NCBI RefSeq assembly: GCF_055900595.2
Contig: NZ_CM148325.1
Direction: 5' to 3' (one strand)
DNA length: 64,000 nt
Shown here: positions 1-63,539 of the stretch, piece by piece
Layout: each line of letters opens with the position of its first letter
Position numbering within the stretch: position 1 is the first letter of the stretch
The notes under the pieces: model-generated
The model's database searches: none
What the model was told of the DNA's origin: nothing
Seen by the model: the letters and a program-made list of their open reading frames with translations, nothing else
Position numbers and translations under genes: made by a program

Positions 1-1
1 C

Positions 2-1291
2 GTACTGCTGCCGGACGAACTGCCGCTGGAAGAAAAAGCAGTGACACAACTGCTTGATTTTGCAGATGTGAAGCTACCAGACCACCCAGGTTATGTGCGC
101 CAGACGTGCGCGACGCCAGATTTTCATCCCGGCAATGGCGTCCCCGTTGGCGCGGTGGTGGCCTCAACGCCGGATTTAGTCATTCCCGCCGCCATCGGCA
201 CCGATATTTCTTGTGGCATGCGGCTGCTGACGACCGGATTAACACTTGAGCAAGCCGAAGCGCATAAAGACGTCATCGCTCAGCGGTTAACGCAAGTGCT
301 ACTGCAAAATGAGCGCGATGTTCCGTTATCCGCACAGGCGTTCACCGCGCTTTTTGATGGCGGACCGGCAGATTGCATGTCGGCCTTGCCATCAGCAGGT
401 CTCTGGACACGTACAAATATCCCCCGGATGACGCAAGAGATTGACCGCTGCATTGGGCTTAAAGAGCATAACAGTCATTCGCGTTATGCCCCACCCGCCC
501 TGCTGGCAACGGACCGCGCATTACTCCGCGATCCTTGTCTTGGTACGCCGGGTTCAGGTAATCATTTTATTGAACTTCAGGTCGTTGATAACGTGGTTGA
601 TCGCCATGTGGCCTGGCAACAAGGGCTGAAAACAGGCGATATTGTGGTGATGATCCACAGTGGATCACGAGATGTTGGCTTTTACGTCGGAAGACGCTGG
701 ATGGATCGCGCCCGTGCTGAATGGCCCACCGGACATAAACATCCACAAAGCGGGTTATATGGTCTGGCAGGCGGACTGGCGGAGGAATATCTACAAGCGA
801 TAGGAATGGCGGCGCGTTACGCGTGGTTAAATCGCGTGACAATTGCCGAAATGGTGCGCGTATGTCTTGCCAATCTCTTTCATCAGGACAATTCGCATCT
901 GGTGGTGGATGTGCCACATAACATCATCCTTCGCGAGCATGAAATGAATATTCATCGCAAAGGCGCAACACCGGCACGAGTGGGCAATCTGGCGTTAATC
1001 CCCGGTTCAATGGGCGATTATTCGTGGCTTGCGGTTGGTTGCGGCAACCCGGAGTGGCTGTGGTCATGCAGTCACGGAGCAGGACGCAGCCAGCGTCGGC
1101 AGGCCATGCGCTCACGCGCGACTGAAGAGTCAACGCTGCCGTGGCAATGCGTCACATTGCGCGAAGAACGACGTCTTGAAGAAGCGCCAGCGGCTTATAA
1201 AGATATTGGTCCGGTTATCGAAGCTCAACAAGAAGCCGGATTAATTCAGCCAGCGGTCAGATTTCGACCGTGGTTAACGTTTAAAGCATAA
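2..1291 (+). CDS. RtcB-family RNA ligase paralog, 5'-truncated by the window edge
   Basis: Reading frame is open from position 2; motifs GSGNHFIE, HSGSRD, PGSMGDYS and CSHGAGR match the RtcB catalytic core; alignment to E. coli RtcB begins around residue 40, so the N-terminus lies upstream of the window. Confidence 0.85.
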   Translation, partial: VLLPDELPLEEKAVTQLLDFADVKLPDHPGYVRQTCATPDFHPGNGVPVGAVVASTPDLVIPAAIGTDISCGMRLLTTGLTLEQAEAHKDVIAQRLTQVLLQNERDVPLSAQAFTALFDGGPADCMSALPSAGLWTRTNIPRMTQEIDRCIGLKEHNSHSRYAPPALLATDRALLRDPCLGTPGSGNHFIELQVVDNVVDRHVAWQQGLKTGDIVVMIHSGSRDVGFYVGRRWMDRARAEWPTGHKHPQSGLYGLAGGLAEEYLQAIGMAARYAWLNRVTIAEMVRVCLANLFHQDNSHLVVDVPHNIILREHEMNIHRKGATPARVGNLALIPGSMGDYSWLAVGCGNPEWLWSCSHGAGRSQRRQAMRSRATEESTLPWQCVTLREERRLEEAPAAYKDIGPVIEAQQEAGLIQPAVRFRPWLTFKA

Positions 1292-1313
1292 AAAAGGCCA
1301 TCATACGATGGCC
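1291..1313 (-). terminator. intrinsic terminator of sucD/SdhX
   Basis: Minus-strand hairpin GGCCATC-GUAU-GAUGGCC followed by a U-run (plus-strand A-run 1291-1295). Confidence 0.8.
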
Positions 1314-1388
1314 AACCATGTCGAAACCGACAGCCCTTCGCCATTCCTGTAGAGGGAAGCGGCGAGGGCTATTTCTTATTACAGATAT
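1292..1388 (-). ncRNA. sdhX: SdhX (RybD) sRNA from the sucD 3'UTR
   Basis: Lies between the sucD stop and the terminator, where this 3'UTR-derived sRNA is known to map; not verified by alignment. Confidence 0.5.
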
Positions 1389-2258
1389 TTATTTCAGAAC
1401 AGTTTTCAGTGCTTCACCGATATCCGCCAGGCTGCGAACGGTTTTCACGCCTGCGGCTTCCAGAGCAGCGAATTTCTCATCCGCAGTCCCTTTCCCACCG
1501 GCAATGATGGCACCCGCGTGGCCCATACGTTTGCCTTTCGGCGCAGTTACACCAGCGATGTAACCTACAACTGGCTTGGTAACGTGCTCTTTGATGTACG
1601 CAGCCGCTTCTTCTTCAGCGCTACCGCCGATCTCACCGATCATCACGATCGCTTCGGTCTGCGGATCTTTTTCGAACATTTCGAGGATGTCGATAAAGTT
1701 AGAGCCAGGGATCGGGTCGCCGCCGATACCAACACAGGTCGACTGACCGAAACCGTAATCCGTGGTCTGTTTAACCGCTTCATAGGTCAGTGTACCGGAA
1801 CGGGAAACGATACCCACTTTACCCGGTTTGTGAATGTGACCAGGCTGGATGCCGATTTTACATTCACCCGGAGTGATAACGCCCGGGCAGTTCGGGCCGA
1901 TCATACGAACGCCTGCTTCATCCAGTTTCACTTTCACGGTCAGCATATCCAGCGTCGGGATGCCTTCAGTGATGGTGATAATCAGTTTGATGCCTGCGTC
2001 GATGGCTTCCAGAATGGAGTCTTTGCAGAACGGTGCTGGTACGTAGATAACAGAAGCGGTAGCGCCGGTGGCAGCAACGGCTTCACGCACGGTGTTGAAC
2101 ACCGGCAGACCGAGGTGGGTAGTACCGCCTTTACCAGGGGTTACGCCGCCAACCATTTTAGTGCCGTATGCAATGGCCTGTTCAGAGTGGAAAGTCCCCT
2201 GGCTACCAGTAAAGCCCTGGCAGATAACCTTGGTGTTTTTATCAATTAAAATGGACAT
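1389..2258 (-). CDS. sucD: succinyl-CoA synthetase alpha subunit
   Basis: 289 aa, [27 protein letters not shown]..., CoA-binding and ATP-citrate lyase/succinyl-CoA ligase motifs. Confidence 0.97.
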
Positions 2259-3424
2259 TATTTCCCCTCCACTGCGGCAACAACCTGCTGAGCTGCATCC
2301 GTCAGACCTTTTGCTGCAATAATATTCAGGCCGCTGTCAGCCAGTTTCTTCGCGCCGAGTTCGGCGTTGTTACCTTCCAGACGTACCACGACCGGTACGT
2401 TAACACCCACTTCCGCTACCGCGCCGATAATACCGTCAGCGATCAGGTCGCAACGAACGATACCACCGAAGATGTTAACCAGAACGGCTTTCACTTTGTC
2501 GTCAGAGAGGATGATTTTGAACGCTTCGGTTACACGTTCTTTGGTTGCGCCACCGCCAACGTCCAGGAAGTTAGCTGGTTCGCCGCCGTGCAGTTTAACG
2601 ATGTCCATCGTACCCATCGCCAGACCTGCGCCGTTAACCATACAACCGATGTTACCATCCAGCGCAACGTAGTTCAGTTCCCACTGTGCAGCCTGTGCTT
2701 CACGTGGATCTTCCTGCGACTGGTCACGCATTTCGCGCAGATCAGGCTGGCGGAACAGTGCGTTGCCATCAGCGCCCAGTTTACCGTCGAGGCAGATCAG
2801 ATCGCCCTGTTTGGTAATAACCAACGGGTTAATTTCGATAAGAGCAAGGTCGCGCTCAAGGAAAATGGTCGCCAGACCCATGAAAATTTTGGTGAACTGT
2901 TGAACCAGTTTACCTTCCAGACCCAGTTTGAACGCCAGCTCACGACCCTGATACGGCATCGGGCCAGTCAGCGGATCAAGCGCAACTTTGTGGATCAGGT
3001 GCGGAGTTTCTTCCGCCACTTTTTCGATTTCCACGCCGCCTTCAGTGGAGGCCATAAAGACCACGCGACGGGAACTACGGTCTACAACGGCACCAAGATA
3101 CAGCTCTTTAGCGATATCGGTCGCTGCTTCAACCAGAATCTGGTTAACCGGTTGGCCATTAGCATCTGTTTGATACGTTACCAGACGCTTGCCCAGCCAG
3201 TTTTCTGCAAAAGCACGGATGTCTTCTTTGCTGTTTACAACTTTCACACCGCCCGCTTTACCGCGGCCACCAGCGTGAACCTGACATTTCACTACCCACG
3301 GACCGGCACCGATTTTTGAAGCGGCTTCTTCTGCTTCGCGCGGAGTAGTACAGGCATAACCCACCGGTGCTGGTAAGCCATAGCGGGCAAACAGTTGTTT
3401 TGCCTGATATTCATGTAAGTTCAT
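2258..3424 (-). CDS. sucC: succinyl-CoA synthetase beta subunit
   Basis: 388 aa, [18 protein letters not shown]..., ATP-grasp; stop overlaps sucD start (TAATG). Confidence 0.97.
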
Positions 3425-3510
3425 GTGTTCTGTCCATCCTTCAGTAATCGTTATCTTTTAAACCGTAGACCGAATATTTCGTATCGCTTCCGGGTATTGT
3501 CGGTCACCCG

Positions 3511-3678
3511 TAGGCCTGATAAGACGCGCAAGCGTCGCATCAGGCATCGCTTGTCGGATGCGGCGCGAGCGCCTTATCCGACCTACATTGATGGTCCCCG
3601 TAGGCCTGATAAGACGCGTCAGCGTCGCATCAGGCTTCAATTGCCGGAGAAAGCGATAATGCCTCATCCGGTCTACAG
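3511..3678. repeat. REP/BIME cluster, about four REP palindromes
   Basis: Repeated GTAGGCCTGATAAGACGCG...CGTCGCATCAGGC and GCCGGATGCGGCG...CGCCTTATCCGACCTAC units in the sucB-sucC intergenic region. Confidence 0.8.
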
Positions 3679-3698
3679 TGCAGGTGAAACTTAAACTA

Positions 3699-4916
3699 CT
3701 ACACGTCCAGCAGCAGACGCGTCGGATCTTCCAGCAACTCTTTGATCGTTACCAGGAAGCCCACGGACTCGCGACCATCGATCAGACGGTGATCGTAGGA
3801 CAGCGCCAGGTACATCATCGGCAGGATCTCAACCTGACCATTCACTGCCATCGGACGATCTTTGATAGCGTGCATACCCAGAATTGCGCTCTGCGGCGGG
3901 TTGATGATAGGCGTAGACATCAGGGAACCGAACACACCACCGTTGGTGATGGTAAAGTTACCACCGGTCAGATCTTCAACCGTCAGCTTGCCGTCACGGC
4001 CTTTAACTGCCAGCTCTTTAATTTTCTTCTCGATGTCTGCCATGCCGAGGGTATCGACATCACGCAGAACCGGCGTCACCAGGCCGCGCGGCGTAGATAC
4101 CGCCATGCTGACGTCGAAATAGTTGTGGTAAACCACATCATCGCCGTCGATAGAAGCATTCACTTCCGGGTAACGTTTCAGGGCTTCAACCACCGCTTTC
4201 ACGTAGAAGGACATAAAGCCCAGACGGATGCCGTGACGTTTTTCAAACGCTTCACCATACTGCTTACGCAGATCCATAATCGGCTTCATGTTGACTTCGT
4301 TGAACGTGGTCAGCATGGCGGTGGAGTTTTTCGCTTCCAGCAGACGCTCTGCCACACGCTTACGCAGGCGAGTCATCGGAACACGTTTTTCGCTACGTGC
4401 AGCCAGAGCCGGTTGCGCCGCCGTAGTAGCTGCTGCCGGTGCAGACTCTTTCGCCGGGGCTTTCGCCAGATGTTTTTCCACATCTTCACGGGTCAGACGA
4501 CCACCTACACCGGTGCCTTTAATGGCGCTGGCATCAAGATTGTGTTCAGCCAAAAGGCGACGGATCGCCGGGCTTAAGGCATCGTTGTTTTGCTCTTCCA
4601 GAGACGCCTGTTGGCGTTGTGCCGGAGTTGACGCTTTCTCTTCAGCTTTAGCGCTGGTTTCTTTACCGGCGCTGTTGCCTTCACGCAGGCGACCAAGGAT
4701 CTGACGAGACGTTACGGTTGTACCTTCATCTTCCAGAACCGCATCCAGAATGCCGTCTGCTGATGCCGGTACTTCCAGTACCACTTTGTCAGTTTCGATT
4801 TCTACCAGCACTTCATCACGTACGACTGCGTCGCCGGGTTTTTTATGCCAGGTTGCGACGGTGGCATCGGCTACGGATTCAGGCAGGTCAGGGACCAGAA
4901 TATCTACGCTACTCAT
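3699..4916 (-). CDS. sucB: dihydrolipoyllysine-residue succinyltransferase (2-oxoglutarate dehydrogenase E2)
   Basis: 405 aa, lipoyl domain with [11 protein letters not shown], Ala/Pro linker, catalytic C-terminal domain. Confidence 0.97.
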
Positions 4917-4930
4917 TGTGTATCCTTTAT

Positions 4931-7732
4931 TTATTCGACGTTCAGCGCGTCATTAACCAGATCTTGTTGCTGTTTCTGGTGAACGGACATATACCCTACC
5001 GCCGGAGAGGCGGAGGCCGGGCGGCCTGCATAACGCAGAGAAGCCCCAAACGGAATCACTTCACGGAAATGATGCTGGCTGCAGTACCATGCGCCCTGGT
5101 TGAGCGGCTCTTCCTGGCACCAGACAAAATCCTTGACGTGAGCAAACTGCTGCAACACTTCCTGCATCGCTTTATGCGGGAACGGGTAGAGTTGCTCGAT
5201 ACGCACAATGGCGACATCGTGTTGATTGTTCTTACGGCGTTGTTCCAGCAGGTCGTAATAAACCTTACCAGAACACATCACTACGCGCTTCACACCCTTA
5301 GGATCAAGCTCGTCGATTTCACCAATGGCAGGCAGGAAGGTGCCGTTCGCCAGTTCTTCGAGGCTGGAAACCGCCAGCGGATGACGCAGCAGGGATTTCG
5401 GCGACATCACCACCAGCGGACGACGCATCCCGCGCAGCGCCTGACGACGCAGCATGTGGTAAACCTGTGCCGGGGTAGACGGTACGCACACCTGCATGTT
5501 TTGTTCAGCACAAAGTTGCAGATAACGTTCCAGACGCGCGGAGGAGTGCTCCGGCCCCTGCCCTTCGTAACCGTGCGGCAGCAACATCACCAGGCCACAC
5601 ATCCGACCCCATTTCTGTTCGCCAGAGGAGATGAACTGGTCGATAACCACCTGCGCACCGTTAGCGAAGTCACCAAACTGCGCTTCCCAGATAGTCAGCG
5701 TGCGCGGCTCTGCGGTGGCATAACCGTATTCAAACGCCAGCACTGCTTCTTCAGACAGTACGGAGTCCCAGACGCGGAACGCGCCCTGACCATTATGGAT
5801 ATGTTGCAGCGGCGTGTAAGTAGAACCGTTGGACTGGTTGTGGATCACCGCATGACGATGGAAGAAGGTACCGCGACCGGAGTCTTCACCCGACAGGCGG
5901 ACCGGAATGCCTTCATCAACCAACGTGGCGTAAGCGAGGTTTTCCGCGCCGCCCCAGTCGAACAGTTTCTCACCGGCAGCCATTGCCTGGCGATCGCCAT
6001 AAATCTTGGCAACGCGAGACTGCATTTCAACCGCTTCCGGCACCGTACTGATACGTTTAGCCAGTTCCTGCAGGCGCTTCATCTCAACTTTGTTCGGGTA
6101 CTCTTCGTCCCATTCGTGGTTGAGGTACGGCGACCAGGTGAAAGAGTGCATGTTCATCGGACGCCACTCTGCTACCACGCAATCGCCAGCATCCAGCGCA
6201 TCGCGATACAGGTTAACCATCTCAGTGGCATCTTCCAGCGTCGCGACCTTTTCCTGCTCCAGCTTGTCAGCGTAGATTTTGCGCGGCGTCGGATGTTTTT
6301 TGATTTTCTGATACATCAGCGGCTGAGTTGCACTCGGCTCGTCGGCTTCGTTGTGGCCGTGACGGCGGTAGCACACCAGGTCGATGAAGACATCACGTTT
6401 AAAGGTGTTACGGAAATCGAGCGCCAGACGGGTCACAAAGGCAACGGCTTCCGGATCATCCGCATTAACGTGGAAAATCGGTGCCTGTACCATCTTGCCG
6501 ATATCAGTACAGTACGGCGTAGAACGGGCATCCAGCGGGTTAGAGGTGGTGAAGCCAACCTGGTTGTTGATAACGATACGTACCGTACCGCCAACTTCAT
6601 AACCACGCGCTTTCGACATGTTCAGAGTTTCCTGAACCACGCCCTGCCCGGTCACTGCGGCATCACCGTGGATGGTGATTGGCAGCACTTTGTTGCTGCT
6701 CGGCTCATCGAGTCTGTCCAGACGGGCGCGAACAGAACCGATAACTACCGGGCTTACAATCTCAAGGTGAGACGGGTTAAACGCCAGCGCCAGGTGAACC
6801 AGGCCGCCATCGGTCTGGAAGTCAGACGAGAAGCCCATGTGGTATTTCACGTCGCCCGTGCCGAGGTGTTCTTTATGTTTACCGGCAAATTCGTCGAACA
6901 AGTCTTGCGGTTTTTTACCCAGCACGTTAACCAGCACGTTCAGACGACCACGGTGCGCCATCCCGAGAACCACTTCACGGGTGCCGCTATTGCCAGCATG
7001 GCGGATCATCTCTTTAAGCATCGGGATTAACGCGTCACCGCCTTCCAGCGAGAAGCGTTTTGCGCCAGGGAATTTTGCGCCGAGGTAACGTTCGAGGCCT
7101 TCAGCGGCGGTCAGTTCGCTTAAGAAGCGTTTTTTCTCTTCGCTATTGAAAGTCGCGCGACCAGACTCGATACGCTGTTGGATCCAGCGTTTTTCTTCGG
7201 TGCTGGTAATGTGCATGTACTCGGCACCAATCGGGCCGCAGTAGGTTTGCTTGAGGGCTTCCAGCAGCTCGCCGAGTTTCATGGTTTCTTTGCCGCTGGC
7301 AAATGAACCGACGTTGAAGGTCTCCTGGAAGTCTGCTTCGGTCAGATCGTGGAAAGACGGATCCAGATCGGCCACTTTATCTTGCTGCCACAGTCCCAGC
7401 GGATCGAGATTCGCATGCTGGTGACCGCGGAAGCGGTATGCGTTAATGAGCTGCAGGACTTTAACCTGCTTCACATTGGTGTCAGGGTCGGAGATCGTTG
7501 AAGAGTAACGTGAAGCGTCTTTCGCCAGGCGGCGGAAATATTCACGCGTTTGAGAGTGGAATTGATCCGGTTTGACTCCCGTACCAGGTAACTGCTGGAA
7601 CGTCGAACGCCAGTTAGCGTCAACCGAGTCAGGATCGGTTAAGAAGTCTTCATAGAGCTGTTCTATCCAGCTCTGGTTTGCGCCAGAGAGGTAAGAAGAG
7701 TCCAACCAGGCTTTCAAAGCGCTGTTCTGCAT
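4931..7732 (-). CDS. sucA: 2-oxoglutarate dehydrogenase E1 component
   Basis: 933 aa, [30 protein letters not shown]... Confidence 0.97.
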
Positions 7733-7891
7733 CGTGATCCCTTAAGCATCTTTTTTATGCTTACTTCGCCGTGGATACTACCACGCACAGTGATGTGCGT
7801 GCCGGGGTTCACTTGCGAGCTCTTGTCTACGTAGTGGCTCGCGAAGGAACCTTTAAAAACTGTCTTAGTGTCAGGGGCAGTTTTTAAAGAT

Positions 7892-8077
7892 TTCCTGCAT
7901 TTCTTTTGTAGGCCGGATAACGCATTCACGCCGCATCCGGCGCTGTTTGCCTGATGCGACGCTTGCGCGTCTTATCAGGCCTACGATTCCTGCATTTCTT
8001 TTGTAGGCCGGATAACGCATTCACGCCGCATCCGGCACTGTTTGCCTGATGCGACGCTTGCGCGTCTTATCAGGCCT
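7892..8077. repeat. tandem direct duplication of a ~95 bp BIME/REP unit
   Basis: Unit TTCCTGCATTTCTTTTGTAGGCCGGATAACGCATTCACGCCGCATCCGGC(G/A)CTGTTTGCCTGATGCGACGCTTGCGCGTCTTATCAGGCCT occurs twice head to tail with one mismatch. Confidence 0.85.
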
Positions 8078-8081
8078 GGGT

Positions 8082-8798
8082 TTACGCATTACGCTGCAAC
8101 AACATCGACTTGATATGGCCGATGGCGCGCGTCGGGTTCAGCCCCTTCGGACATACACTGACGCAGTTCATGATGCTGTGACAGCGGAATACGCTGAATG
8201 CATCGCTCAAACCGTCGAGGCGGCTGTCAGTCTCGGTATCACGGCTATCGATCAGGAAACGATATGCCGCTAACAAGCCTGCCGGGCCGATAAACTTATC
8301 GGGATTCCACCAGAAAGACGGACAAGAGGTTGAACAACATGCGCAGAGAATACATTCATACAGCCCGTCGAGTTTTTCGCGCTGCTCTGGCATCTGTAAA
8401 TGCTCGCGAGCTGGCGGATTTTGTCCATTATTCAACAGGTAAGGCTTAATTTTCTCATATTGCGCATAGAATTGTCCCATGTCTACCACCAAATCGCGGA
8501 TCACCGGTAAACCTGGCAGCGGGCGAATCACAATCTTCTTGCCCGGCTGGTTGAGTGCCGAAATCGGGGTAATACAGGCCAGACCATTCTTACCGTTCAT
8601 GTTCAGACCGTCGGAACCGCACACACCTTCACGGCAGGAACGACGGAACGACAGGCTGGGATCTTTCTCTTTCAACTGGATAAGCGCATCCAGCAGCATC
8701 ATGTCGCGACCTTCTTCCGCTTCCAGGGTGTAATCCTGCATACGCGGAGCATCATCAACATCCGGGTTATAGCGATAAATTGAAAACTCGAGTCTCAT
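8082..8798 (-). CDS. sdhB: succinate dehydrogenase iron-sulfur subunit
   Basis: 238 aa, MRLEFSIYRYNPDVDD..., Cys clusters for 2Fe-2S, 4Fe-4S and 3Fe-4S. Confidence 0.97.
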   Translation of the reverse strand: MRLEFSIYRYNPDVDDAPRMQDYTLEAEEGRDMMLLDALIQLKEKDPSLSFRRSCREGVCGSDGLNMNGKNGLACITPISALNQPGKKIVIRPLPGLPVIRDLVVDMGQFYAQYEKIKPYLLNNGQNPPAREHLQMPEQREKLDGLYECILCACCSTSCPSFWWNPDKFIGPAGLLAAYRFLIDSRDTETDSRLDGLSDAFSVFRCHSIMNCVSVCPKGLNPTRAIGHIKSMLLQRNA

Positions 8799-8813
8799 TT
8801 TCCTGTCTCCGCA

Positions 8814-10580
8814 TTAGTAAGTACGAATCTTCGGCGGGAATGCCGGGCGCAGTTTCGGTTCCATGTTGACGCTTCGGCGCGTCATGGATTCCGACTCTGG
8901 CAGATACAGGGAGTGGCACAGCCAGTTTTCATCATCACGATCCGGGAAGTCGAAGCGGCTATGCGCGCCACGGCTTTCGGTACGGAAGTTGGCAGAAACA
9001 GCCGTTGCATACGCCGTTTCCATCAGGTTATCCAGTTCCAGGCATTCAACGCGCTGGGTGTTGAACTCGCTGGAAGTGTCATCCAGACGGGCATTTTTCA
9101 AACGCTCACGGATCACTTTCAACTGCTCAAGCCCTTTTGCCATCGCATCACCTTCACGGAAGACCGAGAAGTTATGCTGCATACATTCTTGCAGTGCTTT
9201 ACGAATCGCCACCGGATCTTCACCATTACGGTTGTTGTTCCAGCGATTCAGGCGATCCAGAGACGCTTCAACATCAGACTCGCTGGCATCGCGCAGTGCG
9301 CCCTGCTCGGCAATAGACTCTTGCAGATGCAGGCCCGCTGCGCGACCAAAGACCACCAGGTCCAGCAGCGAGTTACCGCCAAGACGGTTAGCGCCGTGTA
9401 CCGAAACACAAGCGATTTCACCTACCGCGAACAGCCCCGGAACAACCACATCTTCGCCTTTCTCGTTCACCGTCAGCGCCTGACCGGTCACTTTGGTCGG
9501 AATACCGCCCATCATGTAGTGACAGGTTGGGATAACCGGAATCGGCTCTTTCACCGGATCGACGTGTGCGAAGGTACGGGAGAGTTCAAGGATACCCGGC
9601 AGACGGGATTCGAGAACTTCTTTACCCAGGTGGTCGAGTTTCAGTTTTGCATGTGGCCCCCACGGACCATCACAGCCGCGACCTTCACGGATTTCGATCA
9701 TGATGGAACGCGCCACCACGTCACGGCCCGCCAGGTCTTTGGCGTTCGGCGCATAACGCTCCATAAAGCGTTCGCCATGTTTGTTCAGCAGGTAACCGCC
9801 TTCACCACGGCAACCTTCGGTGACCAGTACGCCCGCACCTGCTATACCGGTCGGGTGGAACTGCCACATTTCCATATCCTGCACAGGTACACCTGCACGG
9901 ATAGCCATACCGACGCCGTCGCCGGTGTTAATGTGCGCGTTGGTGGTGGACTGATAAATACGCCCTGCCCCGCCGGTTGCCAGCACAGTCGCACGGGCTT
10001 TGAAGTAAACCACTTCACCGGTTTCGATGCACAGTGCGGTACAACCAACTACCGCGCCATCCTGGTTCTTCACCAGATCCAGCGCATACCACTCGGAGAA
10101 AATGGTGGTGTGGTTTTTCAGGTTCTGCTGATAAAGCGTGTGCAACAGTGCGTGACCGGTACGGTCAGCTGCCGCCGCAGTACGTGCCGCTTGCTCGCCA
10201 CCGAAGTTTTTCGACTGGCCGCCAAACGGACGTTGATAGATACGACCATCATCAAGACGCGAGAACGGTAGCCCCATGTGTTCCAGTTCCAGAATCGCTT
10301 CCGGCCCGGTTTTACACATATATTCAATCGCGTCCTGGTCACCGATATAGTCCGACCCTTTTACGGTGTCGTACATATGCCATTCCCAGTTATCTTCATG
10401 GGTATTACCCAGCGCAACGGTAATGCCGCCTTGCGCAGAAACGGTATGGGAACGGGTCGGGAAGACTTTGGAGAGCAGCGCACAGGTTTGGCCGCTCTGG
10501 GAAATTTGCAGCGCCGCGCGCATACCTGCGCCACCGGCACCAATCACAACTGCATCAAATTCTCTGACTGGCAATTTCAT
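8814..10580 (-). CDS. sdhA: succinate dehydrogenase flavoprotein subunit
   Basis: Start placed at [19 protein letters not shown] (FAD-binding GxGxxG), four codons inside the longest ORF; 588 aa. Confidence 0.96.
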
Positions 10581-10927
10581 CACACACCCCACACCACAAC
10601 GAATCCATAAATCACGTAAACCACCAGTGCAACGACAATCACCAGTTGCAGCATCAGGCGCAAGGCCAGCGGTTTAACGTAGTCGGTCAACACCTGCCAC
10701 ATGCCGATCCAGGCATGGATCAAGATAGAAAACAGCGCCAGCAGGGTGAACACTTTGGTGAACGCAGAGGCGAAGAAACCAATCCAGACTTCATATGTCA
10801 GCTCGCCACTGGTAGCGAAAAAACCGACCATATAAATGATGTAAAGCGTCAGGACGATAGCGGTAGCGCGAACGAGGATGAAATCATGTACGCCATTGCG
10901 TCCTAATGCGGAGGCGTTGCTTACCAT
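10580..10927 (-). CDS. sdhD: succinate dehydrogenase membrane anchor subunit
   Basis: 115 aa hydrophobic protein; stop overlaps sdhA start (ATGA). Confidence 0.95.
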
Positions 10928-11310
10928 ACGAGGACTCCTGCGAGAAGTGAAAGCACGACAGTAATAACAAAGGAGATTTTGGCGGAGCGTTTACCCGCTT
11001 CGAATGTTTCTTCCAGATAGCCAAAATCCATCATCATGTGGCGAATACCTACGACGACGTGATACGCCAGAGCGGTAAGGATGCCCCACATGATAAATTT
11101 GACGAAGAAGCTGCCCATAATCGCGGAAGCTTGCTCGAAACCTTCAGGGGAAGAGAGGCTGGTACCCAGAAGCCACAGCAGGATGCCCACTGCAACAAAG
11201 GTGATCACACCGGAAACGCGATGGAGAATGGACGCTATCGCCGTGACGGGGAACCGGATGGTCTGTAGGTCCAGATTAACAGGTCTTTGTTTTTTCACAT
11301 TTCTTATCAT
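10921..11310 (-). CDS. sdhC: succinate dehydrogenase cytochrome b556 subunit
   Basis: Start placed at [15 protein letters not shown] (129 aa), five codons inside the longest ORF. Confidence 0.93.
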
Positions 11311-12018
11311 GAATAACGCCCACATGCTGTTCTTATTATTCCCTGGGGACTACGGGCACAGAGGTTAACTTTCTGTTACCTGGAGACGTCGGGATTTCCT
11401 TCCTCCGGTCTGCTTGCGGGTCAGACAGCGTCCTTTCTATAACTGCGCGTCATGCAAAACACTGCTTCCAGATGCGAAAACGACACGTTACAACGCTGGG
11501 TGGCTCGGGATTGCAGGGTGTTCCGGAGACCTGGCGGCAGTATAGGCCGTTCACAAAATCATTACAATTAACCTACATATAGTTTGTCGGGTTTTATCCC
11601 GAACAGTGATCTGGGTCACGATAACAACATTTATTTAATTTTTAATCATCTAATTTGACAATCATTCAACAAAGTTGTTACAAACATCACTAGGAAAAGC
11701 ATATAATGCGTAAAAGTTATGAAGTCAGTATTTCACCTAAGATTAACTTATGTAACAGTGTGGAAGTATTGACCAATTCATTCGGGACAGTTATTAGTGG
11801 TAGACAAGTTTAATAATTCGGATTGCTAAGTACTTGATTCGCCATTTATTCGTCATCAATGGATCCTTTACCTGCAAGCGCCCAGAGCTCTGTACCCAGG
11901 TTTTCCCCTCTTTCACAGAGCGGCGAGCCAAATAACAAACGGGTAAAGCCAGGTTGATGTGCGAAGGCAAATTTAAGTTCCGGCAGTCTTACGCAATAAG
12001 GCGCTAAGGAGACCTTAA
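11311..12018. promoter_or_regulatory. divergent gltA / sdhCDAB promoter and leader region
   Basis: 708 bp AT-rich interval between divergent sdhC and gltA; this is the known position of the gltA and sdhC promoters and the long sdhC leader; individual sites not mapped here. Confidence 0.6.
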
Positions 12019-13302
12019 ATGGCTGATACAAAAGCAAAACTCACCCTCAACGGGGATACAGCTGTTGAACTGGATGTGCTGAAAGGCACGCTGGGTCAAG
12101 ACGTTATTGATATCCGTACTCTCGGTTCAAAAGGTGTGTTCACCTTTGACCCAGGCTTCACTTCAACCGCATCCTGCGAATCTAAAATTACTTTTATTGA
12201 TGGTGATGAAGGTATTTTGCTGCACCGCGGTTTCCCGATCGATCAGCTGGCGACCGATTCTAACTACCTGGAAGTTTGTTACATCCTGCTGAATGGTGAA
12301 AAACCAACTCAGGAACAGTATGACGAATTTAAAACGACGGTGACCCGTCATACCATGATCCACGAGCAGATTACCCGTCTGTTCCATGCTTTCCGTCGCG
12401 ACTCGCATCCAATGGCAGTCATGTGTGGTATTACCGGCGCGCTGGCGGCGTTCTATCACGACTCGCTGGATGTTAACAATCCTCGTCATCGTGAAATTGC
12501 CGCGTTCCGCCTGCTGTCAAAAATGCCGACCATGGCCGCGATGTGTTACAAGTATTCCATTGGTCAGCCATTCGTTTACCCGCGCAACGATCTCTCCTAT
12601 GCCGGTAACTTCCTGAATATGATGTTCTCCACGCCGTGCGAACCGTATGAAGTTAATCCGATTCTGGAACGTGCTATGGACCGTATTCTGATCCTGCACG
12701 CTGACCATGAACAGAACGCCTCTACCTCCACCGTGCGTACCGCTGGCTCTTCGGGGGCGAACCCGTTTGCCTGTATCGCAGCAGGTATTGCTTCACTGTG
12801 GGGACCTGCGCACGGTGGTGCTAACGAAGCAGCGCTGAAAATGCTGGAAGAAATCAGCTCCGTTAAACACATTCCGGAATTTGTTCGTCGTGCGAAAGAC
12901 AAGAATGACTCTTTCCGCCTGATGGGCTTCGGTCACCGCGTGTACAAAAACTACGACCCGCGCGCCACCGTCATGCGTGAAACCTGCCACGAAGTCCTGA
13001 AAGAGCTGGGCACGAAGGATGACCTGCTGGAAGTAGCTATGGAGCTGGAAAATATCGCGCTGAACGACCCGTACTTTATTGAGAAAAAACTGTACCCTAA
13101 CGTCGATTTCTACTCTGGTATCATCCTGAAAGCGATGGGTATTCCGTCTTCCATGTTCACCGTCATATTCGCTATGGCACGTACAGTTGGCTGGATCGCC
13201 CACTGGAGCGAAATGCACAGTGATGGCATGAAGATTGCCCGTCCACGTCAGCTGTATACCGGCTATGAAAAACGCGATTTTAAAAGCGACATCAAACGTT
13301 AA
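12019..13302 (+). CDS. gltA: citrate synthase
   Basis: 427 aa, [36 protein letters not shown]... Confidence 0.98.
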
Positions 13303-13331
13303 CTGCTGATTCCTAAGCTGTAAATTCTGTT

Positions 13332-13362
13332 AACCCGCCTTTAAAAGGCGGGTTAATTTTTA
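13332..13362 (+). terminator. gltA intrinsic terminator
   Basis: Hairpin AACCCGCCT-TTAAA-AGGCGGGTT followed by a T-run. Confidence 0.85.
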
Positions 13363-13694
13363 TCTACCTGAACACAAAAAAATGTAAAAATAAAATTAAT
13401 TAACCGGCTGACATTAATATTGCAAAATAATAGAATTGTTCATTTTATCGGCAAAATAATAAATTTTAATTAAGGTATCTGCTTTTAGTTACATTTATAA
13501 CCTCATGAAAATGAGGTATATCTCTCTCATTCCCCCCGATAACATTCATTAAATTATTAATTCATCACATCAATTAGTTAACCTTGCATTTAATATAATT
13601 AATAATATTTTTAAGTAAAACTAAAAACATTCGACAATCAAATAAGATATTCTGATATCGCTATACTTTTTCTATTTCTGTAAAGGACTCAGTT

Positions 13695-14261
13695 ATGTTT
13701 AAAGGACAAAAAACATTGGCCGCATTGGCCGTATCTCTGTTATTCACTGCACCGGTTTATGCAGCTGATGAAGGTTCTGGTGAAATTCACTTTAAAGGTG
13801 AGGTTATAGAAGCACCATGTGAAATACATCATGATGATATTGATAAAGAAATTGAGCTAGGTCAGGTGACCACCAGCCACATTAATCAGTCTCATCACAG
13901 CGATGCGGTTGCTGTCGACCTGCGTTTAATCAACTGCGACCTGGAAAACTCTAATAACGGTTCCGGTGGCAAGATTTCCAAAGTTGCGGTCACCTTCGAT
14001 AGCTCAGCGAAAACCACTGGCGCAGATCCGATACTCAACAATACCAGCACTGGCGAAGCCACCGGTGTCGGCGTGCGTTTAATGAATAAGGATCAAAGCA
14101 ATATCATTTTAGGCACTGCTTCTCCGGATATCGACCTCGCACCAACGTCCAGTGAACAAACACTGAACTTCTTTGCCTGGATGGAACAAATTGATCAAGC
14201 GACACCAGTAACGGCAGGGGCTGTTACAGCGAATGCAACCTACGTACTGGATTATAAATAA
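13695..14261 (+). CDS. ybgD: fimbrial major subunit-like protein
   Basis: 188 aa, signal peptide MFKGQKTLAALAVSLLFTAPVYA, fimbrial subunit fold; RBS AAAGGA upstream. Confidence 0.9.
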   Translation: MFKGQKTLAALAVSLLFTAPVYAADEGSGEIHFKGEVIEAPCEIHHDDIDKEIELGQVTTSHINQSHHSDAVAVDLRLINCDLENSNNGSGGKISKVAVTFDSSAKTTGADPILNNTSTGEATGVGVRLMNKDQSNIILGTASPDIDLAPTSSEQTLNFFAWMEQIDQATPVTAGAVTANATYVLDYK

Positions 14262-14310
14262 GCGTTATTGGGCGGCATCACTGCCGCCTTTCTTAAAATA
14301 TTTATCTGGT

Positions 14311-16770
14311 ATGGACACCGTGAATATTTATCGACTCTCTTTTGTATCCTGCCTGGTCATGGCGATGCCTTCCGCCATGGCGGTTGAATTCAACCTGAAT
14401 GTCCTCGACAAATCGATGCGTGAGCGCATTGATATTTCATTATTAAAGGAAAAAGGTGTCATTGCTCCCGGTGAATATTTTGTCAGCATTGCGGTAAATA
14501 ATAACCAAATCAGTAATGGGCAAAAAATTAACTGGCAAAAAAAGGGTGACAATACCATTCCGTGCATCAATGATTTATTGGTCGATAAATTTGGCTTAAA
14601 ACCTGAAGTCCGTCAGTCGTTACCCCTGATTAATCAGTGCGTCAATTTTAGCACCCGACCAGAAATGCTCTTCAATTTTGATCAGGCCAGTCAGCAACTG
14701 AATATCACCATCCCACAGGCCTGGCTGGCGTGGCACTCAGATAACTGGACTCCACCCTCCACATGGAAAGAAGGTGTCCCCGGTGTCCTGATGGATTACA
14801 ACTTGTTTGCCAGCAGCTACCGCCCACAGGATGGCAGCAGCAGCACTAATCTTAACGCCTACGGAACAGCCGGAATTAACGCGGGGGCATGGCGCTTACG
14901 CAGTGACTATCAGTTGAATCAAAATGATGGCGATGATAACCATGAGCAGTCAGGCGAAATATCACGTACCTATCTTTTTCGCCCGCTACCGCAATTAGGT
15001 TCAAAATTAACCCTCGGCGAAACGGATTTTAGTTCCAATATTTTCGACGGTTTTTCTTATACCGGCGCGGCACTGGCGAGTGACGACCGGATGTTACCGT
15101 GGGAACTGCGCGGCTACGCTCCACAAATTAGCGGTATTGCACAAACCAATGCCACGGTGACGATCAGTCAATCAGGCCGCGTCATCTACCAGAAAAAAGT
15201 CCCGCCAGGCCCGTTTATCATTGATGATCTGAATCAGTCCGTCCAGGGGACGCTGGATGTCAAAGTGACGGAAGAAGATGGTCGGGTGAACAATTTCCAG
15301 GTTTCGGCAGCATCGACGCCTTTCCTTACGCGCCAGGGGCAGGTTCGTTATAAACTGGCCGCGGGTCAGCCACGGCCCTCCATGTCTCATCAAACTGAAA
15401 ATGAAACCTTTTTTAGCAATGAAGTTTCCTGGGGGATGCTGTCAAATACCTCGCTGTACGGCGGCCTGCTGATTTCGGGTGATGACTACCATTCTGCCGC
15501 AATGGGTATCGGGCAAAATATGCTGTGGCTTGGCGCGCTATCGTTTGATGTCACCTGGGCCAGTAGCCATTTTGATACCGAGCAGGACGAGCGGGGATTA
15601 AGCTACCGCTTTAATTACAGCAAACAAGTGGATGCCACTAACAGCACGATTTCGCTCGCCGCTTATCGCTTCTCAGATCGTCATTTTCACAGCTACGCCA
15701 ACTATCTGGATCACAAATACAACGACAACGATGCGCAGGACGAAAAACAGACGATCAGCTTATCCGTGGGGCAACCGATTACCCCACTGAACCTCAATCT
15801 GTACGCCAACCTGCTGCATCAAACCTGGTGGAATGCAGACGCCTCCACGACCGCCAACATTACGGCGGGTTTTAATGTTGATATTGGTAACTGGAGAGAT
15901 ATCTCGATCTCGACGTCATTCAATACAACCCATTACGAAGATAAAGATCGCGACAACCAGATTTACCTGTCGATTTCGCTTCCCTTCGGTAACGGTGGTC
16001 GGGTCGGTTATGACATGCAAAACAGTAGCCACAGCACCACACACCGCATGTCGTGGAACGATACGCTGGATGAACGAAATAGCTGGGGGATGTCTGCTGG
16101 ACTACAATCCGACCGTCCGGACAATGGAGTCCAGGTGAGCGGTAACTATCAGCACCTGAGTTCAGCGGGTGAGTGGGATCTTTCTGGTACTTATGCTGCC
16201 AATGACTACAGTTCTGTTAGCAGCAGCTGGAGTGGTTCTTTCACGGCGACGCAATATGGTGCAGCCGTCCATCGCCGCAGCTCCACCAATGAACCACGCC
16301 TGATGGTCAGCACCGATGGCGTGGCAGATATTCCGGTTCAGGGCAATCTCGACTACACCAACCATTTTGGCATTGCAGTGGTACCGCTGGTTTCCAGTTA
16401 TCAACCTTCCACCGTGGCCGTGAACATGAACGACTTACCCGACGGCGTGACGGTGACAGAAAACGTCATCAAAGAAACGTGGATTGAAGGCGCAATAGGT
16501 TACAAATCACTGGCATCCCGTTCCGGTAAAGACATTAACGTCATCATTCGCAACGCCAGCGGTCAGTTCCCTCCCCTCGGTGCAGATATCCGTCAGGATG
16601 GCAGCAGCATTAGCGTGGGGATGGTTGGCGAGGAAGGACACGCCTGGTTAAGCGGAGTCGCTGAGAATCAAAAGTTTACCGTGGTCTGGGGTGATAGTCA
16701 GCGTTGCTCGCTCCATCTTCCTGAACATATGGAAGACACCGCAAATCGCCTGATTTTACCTTGTCATTAA
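14311..16770 (+). CDS. ybgQ: fimbrial outer-membrane usher
   Basis: About 819 aa; start placed at MDTVNIYRLSFVSCLVMAMPSAMA signal peptide; exact start uncertain. Confidence 0.88.
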   Translation: MDTVNIYRLSFVSCLVMAMPSAMAVEFNLNVLDKSMRERIDISLLKEKGVIAPGEYFVSIAVNNNQISNGQKINWQKKGDNTIPCINDLLVDKFGLKPEVRQSLPLINQCVNFSTRPEMLFNFDQASQQLNITIPQAWLAWHSDNWTPPSTWKEGVPGVLMDYNLFASSYRPQDGSSSTNLNAYGTAGINAGAWRLRSDYQLNQNDGDDNHEQSGEISRTYLFRPLPQLGSKLTLGETDFSSNIFDGFSYTGAALASDDRMLPWELRGYAPQISGIAQTNATVTISQSGRVIYQKKVPPGPFIIDDLNQSVQGTLDVKVTEEDGRVNNFQVSAASTPFLTRQGQVRYKLAAGQPRPSMSHQTENETFFSNEVSWGMLSNTSLYGGLLISGDDYHSAAMGIGQNMLWLGALSFDVTWASSHFDTEQDERGLSYRFNYSKQVDATNSTISLAAYRFSDRHFHSYANYLDHKYNDNDAQDEKQTISLSVGQPITPLNLNLYANLLHQTWWNADASTTANITAGFNVDIGNWRDISISTSFNTTHYEDKDRDNQIYLSISLPFGNGGRVGYDMQNSSHSTTHRMSWNDTLDERNSWGMSAGLQSDRPDNGVQVSGNYQHLSSAGEWDLSGTYAANDYSSVSSSWSGSFTATQYGAAVHRRSSTNEPRLMVSTDGVADIPVQGNLDYTNHFGIAVVPLVSSYQPSTVAVNMNDLPDGVTVTENVIKETWIEGAIGYKSLASRSGKDINVIIRNASGQFPPLGADIRQDGSSISVGMVGEEGHAWLSGVAENQKFTVVWGDSQRCSLHLPEHMEDTANRLILPCH

Positions 16771-16784
16771 TTAAGGAAATGAAA

Positions 16785-17516
16785 ATGACATTTATGAAAG
16801 GACTTCCCCTTTTGTTGTTGGTTACCAGTCTGTGTAGCCACGCTGCACTACAACCCGACCGCACTCGCATTGTGTTTAACGCTAATGATAAAGCTACCAG
16901 TCTGCGAGTAGATAATCGTAGCGATAAACTCCCCTACCTCGCTTATTCCTGGCTCGAAAATGAAAAAGGGGAGAAAAGCGACGATCTTCTGGTCGCCCTG
17001 CCACCGATACAACGTCTGGAACCGAAAGCAACAACGCAGGTGCGGATAGTCAAGCAAGCCTCGACCGCGAAATTACCGGGCGATCGCGAAACGCTATTTT
17101 TCTACAATATGCGTGAAATTCCTCCCGCCCCGGAAAAAAACAGCGACCATGCCGTTCTGCAAGTCGCCATCCAGAGCCGTATCAAGGTGTTCTGGCGACC
17201 GTCTGCATTACGCAAGAAAGCAGGAGAAAAGGTCGAACTGCAGTTACAGGTCAGCCAGCAGGGCAATCAGCTTAGCTTAAAAAACCCTACTGGCTATTAT
17301 CTGACCATCGCGTATCTTGGGCGAAATGAGCAAAGCGTTCTCCCGGGCTTCAAAACTGTGATGATTGCGCCTTTTAGTACAGTAAGCACAACCACTGGAA
17401 ATTATAGTGGCAGCCAGTTTTATCTCGGTTATATGGATGATTATGGCGCATTACGCATGACAACGCTCAACTGTAACGGGCAATGCCGTTTACAGGCGGT
17501 GGAGGCGAAGAAATGA
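16785..17516 (+). CDS. ybgP: fimbrial periplasmic chaperone
   Basis: About 243 aa, signal peptide [20 protein letters not shown], PapD-like; start chosen for AAGGA spacing, uncertain by a few codons. Confidence 0.88.
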
Positions 17517-18574
17517 GTGCTGGCAAGGGATTGTTGCTCATCATCTATTTGTTATTTCTACCGTTAAAATCTGCGCTTGCCCTGAACTGTTACTTTGGTT
17601 CATCCGGTGGTTCGGTAGAAAAATCGGAATCTATTCAACCATTTGCTGTACCAGGGAATGCCAAACCCGGCGATAAGATCTGGGAGTCTGACGATATTAA
17701 AATTCCCGTCTATTGTGACAACAATACCAACGGCAACTTTGAGAGCGAGCATGTCTACGCCTGGGTAAACCCGTACCCGGGAATTCAGGATCGCTATTAT
17801 CAACTCGGCGTAACTTACAATGGTGTTGATTATGATGCTAACCAGGGAAAAAGCCGCATCGACACTAACCAGTGCATCGACAGCAAAAACATTAATATTT
17901 ATACCCCTGAGCAGATCATCGCGATGGGATGGCAGAACAAAATTTGCTCTGGTGATCCCAATAATATTCATATGTCGCGTACGTTTCTCGCTCGCATGCG
18001 GTTATACGTCAAGATACGAGAGATACCGCCGCATGATTATCAAAGCACGCTCAGCGATTACATTGTGGTGCAATTTGATGGCGAAGGAAGCGTTAATGAG
18101 GACCCTACCGCCCAAAACCTGAAATATCATATTACCGGTCTGGAAAACATTCGGGTATTGGATTGCAGCGTCAATTTTTCTATTACCCCAGCCAACCAGG
18201 TCATTGATTTTGGTAAATTTAATGTACTGGATATCCGGCGACACAACATGACAAAAACATTCGGTATTAAAACGACAAAATCACAAAACGATCAATGTAC
18301 CGACGGATTCAAAGTCAGCTCTTCGTTTTATACCGAAGAAACATTGATTGAAGAGGATAAAGCACTGCTGATTGGCAATGGTCTGAAGCTACGTTTACTG
18401 GATGAAAACGCCTCGCCCTATACCTTCAACAAATACAGCGAATATGCCGACTTCACCAGTGACATGCTGATCTACGAAAAAACCTATACGGCTGAACTTT
18501 CGTCTATTCCCGGCACTCCCATTGAGGCTGGCTCCTTCGATACCGTGGTGCTTTTTAAGATTAACTATAACTAA
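17513..18574 (+). CDS. ybgO: fimbrial adhesin-like protein
   Basis: 353 aa from [23 protein letters not shown]; overlaps ybgP stop. Confidence 0.85.
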
Positions 18575-18583
18575 TTTCCCATG

Positions 18584-18615
18584 ATGCCCTTTGCAACCGA
18601 AAGGGCATCTCTTTC
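18584..18615 (+). terminator. putative terminator of the ybgDQPO operon
   Basis: Hairpin ATGCCCTTT-GCAACCG-AAAGGGCAT followed by a T-rich stretch. Confidence 0.55.
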
Positions 18616-18724
18616 AGAAAATTGCTGATTTTCCCCTTTTCCTTGATTGCTGTTATTTTTTCCTGGCCCGGCTTTCTTTATGCTGTATCGATACACCAAA
18701 GAGAAAATAATGAGGAAGCGAAGG

Positions 18725-19771
18725 ATGCCAGTTTTGCAGTGGGGAATGTTATGTGTGCTCTCACTTCTCCTTTCTATTGGCTTCCTCGGATTACATCTCC
18801 CGGCGGCGCTATTACTTGGGCCGATGCTCGCCGGGATCATCTTCAGTATGCGCGGGGTTACCCTGCAACTCCCCCGCTCCGCTTTTCTCGCCGCGCAGGC
18901 CATTCTTGGCTGCATGATTGCGCAAAACCTGACCGGTTCGATCCTGACCACGCTAGCGGTGAACTGGCCGATTGTGTTAGCTATTTTACTGGTGACGTTA
19001 CTTTCCAGCGCCATCGTGGGTTGGTTATTGGTGCGCTATAGCTCACTGCCTGGAAATACCGGTGCCTGGGGTTCTTCGCCAGGCGGCGCGGCTGCGATGG
19101 TTGCTATGGCACAGGATTACGGCGCAGATATTCGTCTGGTGGCGTTTATGCAATACCTACGAGTGCTGTTCGTCGCGGGGGCGGCGGTACTGGTTACGCG
19201 GATGATGTTGGGTGATAACGCTGAAGCGGTTAACCAGCAGATCGTCTGGTTCCCGCCAGTGAGCATTAATCTCCTGCTTACGATTTTGCTCGCGGTCGTT
19301 GCCGGTACGGCGGGATGCTTGCTACGTCTTCCTTCCGGCACGATGCTCATCCCGATGCTGGCGGGCGCAGTGCTCCAGTCTGGTCAGCTCATCACCATCG
19401 AACTACCAGAATGGCTGCTGGCGATGGCGTATATGGCAATTGGCTGGCGGATTGGTCTTGGTTTCGATAAGCAAATCTTACTGCGGGCATTGCGCCCGCT
19501 GCCACAAATCTTGCTGTCGATTTTTACTCTGCTGGCTATTTGTGCAGGTATGGCGTGGGGACTGACCCGGTTTATGCATATTGATTTTATGACTGCCTAC
19601 CTCGCCACCAGTCCCGGCGGGCTTGATACCGTGGCGGTCATCGCCGCAGGGAGCAATGCCGATATGGCGCTTATTATGGCGATGCAAACCCTACGCCTGT
19701 TCAGTATTTTGCTGACGGGGCCAGCCATTGCGCGGTTTATTTCAACCTATGCGCCGAAGCGGTCGGCCTAG
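18725..19771 (+). CDS. abrB: AbrB-family membrane protein (putative regulator/transporter)
   Basis: 348 aa from [17 protein letters not shown], polytopic membrane protein; last 4 nt overlap the convergent nei stop. Confidence 0.85.
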
Positions 19772-20559
19772 TGCTGGCAGCCTGGACACCAGTAAAACGG
19801 GCGCGAGGACAACGTGGTTTTCTCAATGATGCTGCCACAACGTTCGCACGGTTCGCCATCACGATGAAAAACCTTAAAGCGAAACAGCGCCCCATGATGT
19901 TTATTCTCATCCACCTGCCCCCGCGTAGCGTAAGAAAGTCGAGGAATCTCCAGTAACGCGTGTGCGAGTGCATCCAGTTGCGCCGCATTGAGATCTTTCG
20001 CTTTATGATTGCCGGTTAACCCCACCTGCCAGAGGATCTCCACCCGCAAATAATTGCCAAGCCCAGCCAGAAACGCCTGATCGAGTAGTAATCCAGCAAA
20101 CTGACGGTTACGAAAGCGCGGCGACAATAACCGTTCTTTCGCCACCTCCGGCGTCAGATTCGGGTCGAGTACATCGGGGCCAACGCGTTGTAAAAACGGA
20201 TGCGTGGTCAGTTGTTTCGGGGTCAACATCTCAATATCCGAGGCGCTATAAAGCAGAATGGTTTTGTCAGCCGTTTGCAGTTTTACCCGCAATACTCGCG
20301 TGGTCTGCGGCTCTTCGCCGGTATCAACCACGCGCCAGACGCCGTAAAGCTGATTATGGCTGTAGAGCGTTAACCCGTTGGAAAAATGAGTTAACAACGC
20401 CTTACCTCGCGTTTCCACATGGGTAACGTGTTGACCGATAAGTTGTGATTGATAAGGTTTTAACTGCGGGAAGGCAAACCAGACATCAGTTAGAGGTTTA
20501 CCTTTGATCGCCGCCTCCAGGTTATCCGCTGCACGGCGGATCTCCGGGCCTTCAGGCAT
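19768..20559 (-). CDS. nei: endonuclease VIII (DNA glycosylase/AP lyase)
   Basis: 263 aa, N-terminal MPEGPEI catalytic Pro2 motif, C-terminal zinc finger [26 protein letters not shown]. Confidence 0.96.
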
Positions 20560-44581: not shown

Positions 44582-44679
44582 GCCGGATGCGGCGTGAACG
44601 CCTTATCCGTCCTACAAAATAGTGCAAATTCAATATATTGCACCATCCTCGTAGGCCTGATGAACGTAGCGTATCAGGC
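44582..44679. repeat. REP/BIME pair
   Basis: GCCGGATGCGGCGTGAACGCCTTATCCGTCCTAC and GTAGGCCTGATGAACGTAGCGTATCAGGC. Confidence 0.75.
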
Positions 44680-60414: not shown

Positions 60415-60513
60415 GCCTGATGCGCTACGCTTATCAGGCCTACGCAGCTCCTGCAATATATTGAATTTTCATGCTTTTGTAGGCAGGATAAGGCGTTCAC
60501 GCCGCATCCGGCA
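60415..60513. repeat. REP/BIME pair
   Basis: GCCTGATGCGCTACGCTTATCAGGCCTAC and GTAGGCAGGATAAGGCGTTCACGCCGCATCCGGCA. Confidence 0.75.
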
Positions 60514-63235: not shown

Positions 63236-63312
63236 GGCTACGTAGCTCAGTTGGTTAGAGCACATCACTCATAATGATGGGGTCACAGGTTCGAATCCCG
63301 TCGTAGCCACCA
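63236..63312 (+). tRNA. metT: tRNA-Met (elongator, CAU)
   Basis: 77 nt GGCTACGTAGCTCAG...GTAGCCACCA with anticodon CAT. Confidence 0.95.
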
Positions 63313-63322
63313 TCTTTTTTTT

Positions 63323-63407: not shown

Positions 63408-63430
63408 TTCACCAGAAAGCGTTGTACGGA

Positions 63431-63505: not shown

Positions 63506-63539
63506 TCTTCTTCGAGTAAGCGGTTCACCGCCCGGTTAT

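Follow-up and report, generated by a model that had tools for sequence, protein, structure and literature searches.

SdhX of the sucD 3'UTR and its contact with a convergent RtcB-family gene in Escherichia coli

The sucD gene at the end of the sdhCDAB-sucABCD operon converges, in the E. coli DNA analysed here, with an RtcB-family gene, and a terminator hairpin lies in the short gap between the two genes. This arrangement raises the question whether the sucD 3'UTR in this gap is the small RNA SdhX with all of its functional parts, and whether its terminator also serves the convergent gene, with antisense overlap upon readthrough from either side. The window is the whole stretch of 64,000 nucleotides of contig NZ_CM148325.1 (assembly GCF_055900595.2), and all positions given below refer to it unless another record is named. 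Six E. coli genomes, Z0117EC0005 among them, match the window with 100% identity over 20 kb. Only nine of the 5444 records matching its first 20 kb (1-20000) have an identity of at least 99%, six of them of 100%, and the window therefore represents a relatively uncommon E. coli lineage.

Identity and extent of SdhX

The positions 1292-1388 represent the exact gap between sucD on the minus strand and the RtcB-family open reading frame on the plus strand, and the minus-strand reading of this gap is AUAUCUGUAAUAAGAAAUAGCCCUCGCCGCUUCCCUCUACAGGAAUGGCGAAGGGCUGUCGGUUUCGACAUGGUUGGCCAUCGUAUGAUGGCCUUUUUU. The sucD gene, which encodes the alpha subunit of succinyl-CoA synthetase and provides the parental mRNA, is located at 1389-2258 (minus strand) according to the open reading frame list and the annotation of an identical genome. 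Its stop codon TAA is the complement of 1389-1391. SdhX starts at 1388 on the same strand, at the end of the operon, for which the record of the identical genome gives the order sdhA-sdhB-sucA-sucB-sucC-sucD.

When the 101 nt that follow the sucD stop codon are aligned with the annotated sdhX gene of K-12 (b4764), 100 of the 101 positions are identical. In the MG1655 record, this gene is annotated as an ncRNA at 765050-765150 of NC_000913, directly after sucD. This identity indicates that the two sequences are homologous and rules out a chance resemblance. The sole mismatch is at position 100 (window 1289), which is A in the window and G in K-12, and is located after the U6 tract. A very strong 3' end has been detected by Term-seq in K-12 at 765148(+) (Adams et al. 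2021, PMC7815308, Supplementary file 1). According to the sequence printed in that paper, 765148 is U99, the last U of the U6 tract, and corresponds to window 1290. The mismatch at position 100 therefore falls outside mature SdhX, and SdhX occupies 1388-1290 and overlaps the RtcB stop codon on the opposite strand by 2 nt. Thus, the long form of SdhX (1290-1388, minus strand) is 99 nt long and comprises the entire sucD 3'UTR, beginning with the nucleotide that follows the stop codon and ending with the final U of the U6 tract. The end of sdhX as annotated in K-12, with a length of 101 nt, maps to window 1288 on the same strand. The interval 1292-1388, assigned to SdhX in the preliminary description, is exact for the intergenic gap, but slightly too short on its left side for the RNA, which reaches 1290.

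It is nearly certain that the region 1388-1290 on the minus strand is SdhX (RybD), the known E. coli sRNA derived from the sucD 3'UTR, and that it would function as it does in K-12. The proposal of the preliminary description that the sucD 3'UTR is retained and represents SdhX is confirmed by the alignment with K-12, which shows a conserved seed and no rearrangement of the 3'UTR. Nothing in the sequence speaks against this identity. The 101-nt sequence folds with a free energy of -41.3 kcal/mol (z = -4.67). No promoter-like site is detected before SdhX: the sole match in 900-1900 fits 9 of 12 positions, is located deep inside sucD and agrees with the chance expectation. The absence of a promoter before SdhX agrees with its origin by processing. 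The SdhX copy in the window is the standard E. coli allele of a characterised sRNA, and its identification is correct but ordinary, because it is already known.

Rfam 15 gives no SdhX family match, either at the gathering threshold over the whole window or at E <= 10 over 1150-1550. The only match at the locus in the latter search is a weak isrD-like one to the generic terminator (E = 0.6). We read the missing match as the absence of the family from the library, and hence as uninformative rather than as counter-evidence. At other loci in the window, Rfam detects three REP-type elements (naRNA4, 72-79 bits) at 3513-3583 (minus strand), 7911-7981 (plus strand) and 8006-8076 (plus strand), which are located between sucB and sucC and between sdhB and sucA in the operon of SdhX. 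It also detects a full-length match to the Hfq-binding sRNA STnc490 at 42874-42997 (minus strand, 146 bits), two ES036 matches at 44616-44658 (plus strand) and 60436-60478 (minus strand), and a cluster of seven tRNA genes at 63236-63938 (plus strand).

Functional parts of SdhX and their conservation

The seed of SdhX is UUCGACAUGGU at 1315-1325 on the minus strand, with the core CGACAU at 1323-1318, and is complementary to the ackA start region CCAUGUCGA. The seed with this core has been defined just before the terminator by Miyakoshi et al. (2019, PMC6393394), who reported that the 38-nt processed form, SdhX2, is functional, that SdhX is generated from the operon mRNA in an RNase E-dependent manner and depends on Hfq, and that it represses ackA and, in E. 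coli, also fdoG through G62 and katG through the region around C34. The region of the window that matches SdhX2, GUUUCGACAUGGUUGGCCAUCGUAUGAUGGCCUUUUUU at 1290-1327 (minus strand), consists of the seed and the terminator and is identical to that of K-12; its 5' end in E. coli is placed by the 38-nt length. When these 38 nt are folded, the terminator hairpin is formed and the seed is unpaired, as a free 5' arm. G62, which is necessary for fdoG repression according to the published G62C mutation, is window 1327, and C34 is window 1355; both are present, as judged from the identity with K-12. The 5' stem-loop of the long form is located at 1332-1370 (minus strand) according to the fold, and its loop CUUCCCUCUAC includes C34 and represents the E. 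coli-specific katG-pairing site (PMC6393394). This stem-loop is also identical to that of K-12.

The terminator hairpin, GGCCAUC-GUAU-GAUGGCC at 1296-1313 (minus strand), is detected both by the terminator scan and by folding, and its presence was correctly recognised in the preliminary description. It has a 7-bp stem with five GC pairs and a 4-nt loop. The isolated hairpin has a free energy of -12.7 kcal/mol, and none of 200 shuffled sequences folds as well. It is followed by the U6 tract, UUUUUU at 1290-1295 (minus strand), which is identified from the sequence and the mapped K-12 3' end as the 3' tail used in termination and for the binding of Hfq, and the complement of which provides the last two bases (1290-1291) of the RtcB stop codon. 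This hairpin is the Rho-independent terminator of the sdhCDAB-sucABCD operon and SdhX.

By analogy with the published system, SdhX would have no promoter of its own and would be transcribed as the last approximately 100 nt of the sdhCDAB-sucABCD mRNA, ending at the intrinsic terminator. RNase E would then release it in the long form and in the short form of 38 nt, to which Hfq would bind through the terminator and the U-tail. The single-stranded seed would pair with the start-codon region of ackA, such that acetate kinase is repressed, while in E. coli G62 would add to fdoG repression and the C34 loop would repress katG. SdhX would thereby couple the expression of the TCA-cycle operon to acetate and oxidative metabolism. 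The identity, position, seed and terminator of SdhX in the window and the species-wide conservation of SdhX and its ackA site are established here, and the processing, Hfq dependence and targets are those reported in PMC6393394 and are expected to apply to this copy as well.

A query of 104 nt, made up of the stop codon of sucD together with SdhX, is found at a coverage of at least 80% in 5424 of 5426 complete E. coli genomes, and with an identity of at least 99% in 4296 of them. Six E. coli variants were aligned, including K-12, GMM076, M16807, 100416 and FDAARGOS_944. Five of them have an unchanged seed, and the sixth carries IS1 in the seed. In FDAARGOS_944 (NZ_CP065613.1, locus L006, 1576-2384), IS1 is located inside sdhX right after GACAUGG. 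It parts the seed from the terminator, indicating that this is a natural disruption of sdhX. Strain 100416 (NZ_CM128593.1, locus L007) has a natural G62A variant at SdhX position 62.

In 5420 of 5424 E. coli genomes, the ackA start region does not differ from that of K-12, UUCCAUGUCGAGU. The seed core pairs with this site in duplexfold, in which only the core seed pairing was considered, because the program ignores intramolecular structure and over-extends the SdhX-ackA duplex. The ackA site is almost certainly present in the genome analysed here as well, because the K-12 site is near-universal and pairs with the seed; ackA, katG and fdoG are all located outside the window.

The convergent RtcB-family gene and the replacement junction

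The neighbour on the plus strand is represented by the 3' 1291 nt (1-1291) of a gene of 1422 nt (473 aa), the first 131 nt of which are outside the window. The translation is in frame from base 2 of the window to the stop codon TAA at 1289-1291. The complete gene is present in NZ_CP098223 (locus L002, 9160-10581), which is 100% identical to the window, and is annotated there as a 473-aa 'RtcB family protein'. Its residues 71-472 match the RtcB domain PF01139 of Pfam (E = 5.7e-95). The protein is 30% identical to K-12 RtcB, and its sequences GTDISCGM, GSGNHF, HSGSR and SCSHGAGR align with the K-12 RtcB motifs GxDIxCGM, GNHF, HSGSR and SxSHGAGR respectively. Its top matches among solved structures are RtcB of T. 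thermophilus and P. horikoshii. This domain, with predicted metal-binding and His-GMP motifs, assigns the neighbour to the RtcB family of RNA ligases. The scores for the NCBIfam subfamilies are below the cut-offs, both for the equivalog PRK09588 (206.8 bits versus 407) and for the PrfH-associated TIGR03073 (169.3 versus 271.8), and none of rtcA, rtcR and prfH is located near the gene at the locus of the identical genome. A role in a defence system was considered and dropped, because there is no PADLOC match.

In the identical genome, the RtcB-family gene is the first gene of an island of approximately 15.7 kb, which is located between sdhX and cydA in place of mngR-mngA-mngB. It is followed by genes for a LysR-type regulator, cobO, class I fumarase, a dicarboxylate symporter, DUF4387, AtuA, methylaspartate ammonia-lyase and methylaspartate mutase (glmE/L/S), and by two hypothetical genes. 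The RtcB paralogue thus stands alone beside a LysR regulator and a glutamate/methylaspartate fermentation cluster.

The alignments place the boundary of the conserved backbone at 1284-1289. Homology to K-12, which is of the mngR type, extends 6 nt beyond the U-tract, to 1284, so that the replacement leaves SdhX untouched. Position 1289 is T on the plus strand and gives the RtcB stop codon TAA, where K-12 has CAA on that strand. Thus, the A/G change at SdhX position 100 creates the RtcB stop codon, and the final two codons and the stop codon of RtcB are located in sequence common to the K-12 backbone. Two nucleotides of the RtcB stop codon belong to the complement of the U-tract, and the mngR stop codon of K-12 is 5 nt past an identical U-tract. 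The tail-to-tail contact of RtcB and SdhX is equivalent to that of sdhX and mngR in K-12 and is normal for this locus.

The 5426 genomes were assigned to junction types by BLAST coverage classes, and the counts are therefore approximate. The mngR type is represented by 3883 genomes, the methylaspartate-island type by 834, and the Nissle/M16807 type, with a TPR pseudogene downstream as in Nissle 1917, by 547. The island type that keeps RtcB at the junction, defined by a match extending at least about 80 nt into RtcB, is found in 156 of the 834 island-type genomes; because this match reaches only to about window 1210, the number refers to RtcB sequence at the junction, not to an intact gene. These results support the classification of the neighbour as an accessory RtcB-family gene. 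The RtcB-less form of the island was considered as a clean deletion of RtcB. This was rejected, because just the last 44 nt of RtcB are left, followed by unrelated sequence as far as the LysR gene, indicating replacement. At every junction aligned, the break is no more than a few nt away from the U-tract, and SdhX has remained intact. The DNA just past the SdhX terminator (1284-1295) is a hot spot of replacement with at least three alternative contents, at which SdhX is constant. SdhX serves as a fixed anchor and illustrates how tightly an sRNA derived from a 3'UTR is preserved at a recombination hot spot.

Termination, readthrough and comparison with known systems

The hairpin at 1296-1313 folds equally well on the plus strand (-13.0 kcal/mol). 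However, the stem is followed on this strand by AACCAUGUCG/AACCAUGUCGAA/AACCAUGU, which contains no U-tract, whereas it is followed by UUUUUU on the minus strand. The terminator scan detects terminator-like sites only on the minus strand at this locus and none on the plus strand. A U-tract after the hairpin on both strands, as expected for a bidirectional terminator, is therefore not found. These results indicate that the hairpin is an intrinsic terminator for one direction only, which is just in contact with the RtcB stop codon, and the statement in the preliminary description that it is shared with the RtcB gene is not supported as worded. RtcB transcripts that reach this hairpin would probably run on into sequence antisense to SdhX. 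A candidate terminator of RtcB is located at 1332-1381 on the plus strand. It consists of the complement of the 5' stem-loop of SdhX (1332-1370, about -24 kcal/mol) followed by UAUUUCUUAUU, which might stop these transcripts. The simple scan missed this candidate because its stem is bulged and long. The same sequence also faces mngR in K-12. An open reading frame of 81 aa at 1318-1563 on the plus strand, antisense to sucD and SdhX, was treated as a chance one.

Transcription in the opposite direction probably crosses the junction. In K-12, a region of Rho termination has been detected at 765604(+), antisense to mngR, with a Rho score of 2.86 (p = 2.3e-5), for which the 800-nt upstream window takes in sucD and SdhX itself. 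The downstream reads of this region increase from 21 to 95 in the presence of bicyclomycin. These data suggest that some transcription of the sdh-suc operon passes the SdhX terminator in K-12 and continues for about 450 nt in the convergent gene before Rho terminates it, and readthrough from sdh-suc probably occurs. The RNA antisense to RtcB contains more C than G in two stretches, about 200-300 and 500-700 nt downstream of SdhX. These stretches are compatible with Rho loading, for which an excess of C over G is only a heuristic. Because K-12 has both the contact with mngR and the Rho region, antisense overlap is general at this locus and was not brought by RtcB. Thus, the antisense overlap upon readthrough that the preliminary description expected is probable in K-12, but nothing about it is specific to the RtcB neighbour.

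Several other explanations of the junction have to be weighed against an ordinary SdhX with a one-directional terminator. RtcB transcripts may pass the SdhX hairpin and end either at 1332-1370 plus UAUUUCUUAUU or farther downstream through the action of Rho. In that case, the RtcB mRNA would contain a perfect complement of SdhX of about 90 nt, which could titrate SdhX or trigger its cleavage by RNase III, and RtcB could be expressed less strongly as a result of collisions with transcription of sdh-suc. The second hairpin is favourable for such an end, because it has a free energy of about -24 kcal/mol on the plus strand and is followed by six U in 8 nt; its sequence is present in K-12, facing mngR, and the K-12 data suggest that the junction is crossed by transcription in the opposite direction. 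However, among the 3' ends in the K-12 Term-seq tables, none on the minus strand is labelled mngR or sucD, although expression of mngR is probably low in the media used, and the long and bulged stem is atypical of efficient intrinsic terminators. In addition, the operon of SdhX is very highly expressed, and a weakly expressed convergent mRNA would therefore titrate little SdhX. The supplements of the TERMITe Term-seq study do not mention mngR, sucD or sdhX, and a literature search gave no paper on both SdhX and mngR. We consider this course of RtcB transcription possible but rather unlikely.

It is improbable that the hairpin at 1296-1313 is truly bidirectional and ends both the sucD/SdhX and the RtcB transcripts at one stem-loop. 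In favour of a shared terminator, 4 nt separate the stem from the RtcB stop codon, which overlaps the A/U tract, the hairpin is equally stable on the plus strand, and bidirectional terminators between convergent genes are reported to be common in E. coli. On the plus strand, however, the stem runs into AACCAUGUCGAA instead of a U-tract, the sites detected by the scan are on the minus strand only, and an upstream A-tract without a downstream U-tract does not fit the consensus of intrinsic terminators.

There is only a slight chance that the plus-strand hairpin at 1332-1370 with its U-rich tail is the real terminator of the convergent gene, RtcB in the window and mngR in K-12, and that the mRNA, ending in an SdhX antisense of about 90 nt, is a sponge or an RNase III partner of SdhX. 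If this were true, an exchange of the cassette (mngR, RtcB island or Nissle type) would change the signal that decreases SdhX and relieves the repression of ackA. The locus offers a convenient natural setting in which to test whether sRNAs derived from 3'UTRs are modulated by their convergent neighbours. Finally, it is scarcely credible that the region is a mere operon terminator in this genome and that the trans activity of SdhX has been lost through its context, for example by neighbour-driven destabilisation, because all functional determinants are identical to those of K-12, the lone change is beyond the mapped 3' end, and the same SdhX is found unchanged beside at least three different neighbours in E. 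coli, which argues for its insulation from the context.

An ordinary SdhX with a one-directional terminator can be compared with several known systems. It resembles bidirectional intrinsic terminators in that a single hairpin, flanked by an A-tract and, on the opposite side, by a T-tract, is located between convergent stop codons, but differs from them in its asymmetry, with a U-tract after the stem on the minus strand only. K-12 SdhX (b4764) likewise directly follows the sucD stop codon, contains the seed, G62, C34 with the katG loop, the terminator and U6, and is met by a convergent gene that ends within a few nt of the U-tract. It differs in having G at position 100 and in its neighbour, because the mngR stop codon is 5 nt off, whereas RtcB overlaps by 2 nt. 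Salmonella SdhX (SdhX1, 87 nt; SdhX2, 38 nt) is likewise derived from the 3'UTR, processed by RNase E and Hfq-dependent, and targets ackA with the same core seed CGACAU. The katG-pairing region is missing from it, and U takes the place of G62 (PMC6393394), whereas the window has the E. coli version of both. CpxQ, NarS, the GlnZ/SucA-regulating sRNA and MalH follow the same logic of biogenesis, with an operon terminator, an upstream seed and RNase E cleavage, but originate from other parental operons and act on other targets, and are analogues, not homologues, of SdhX.
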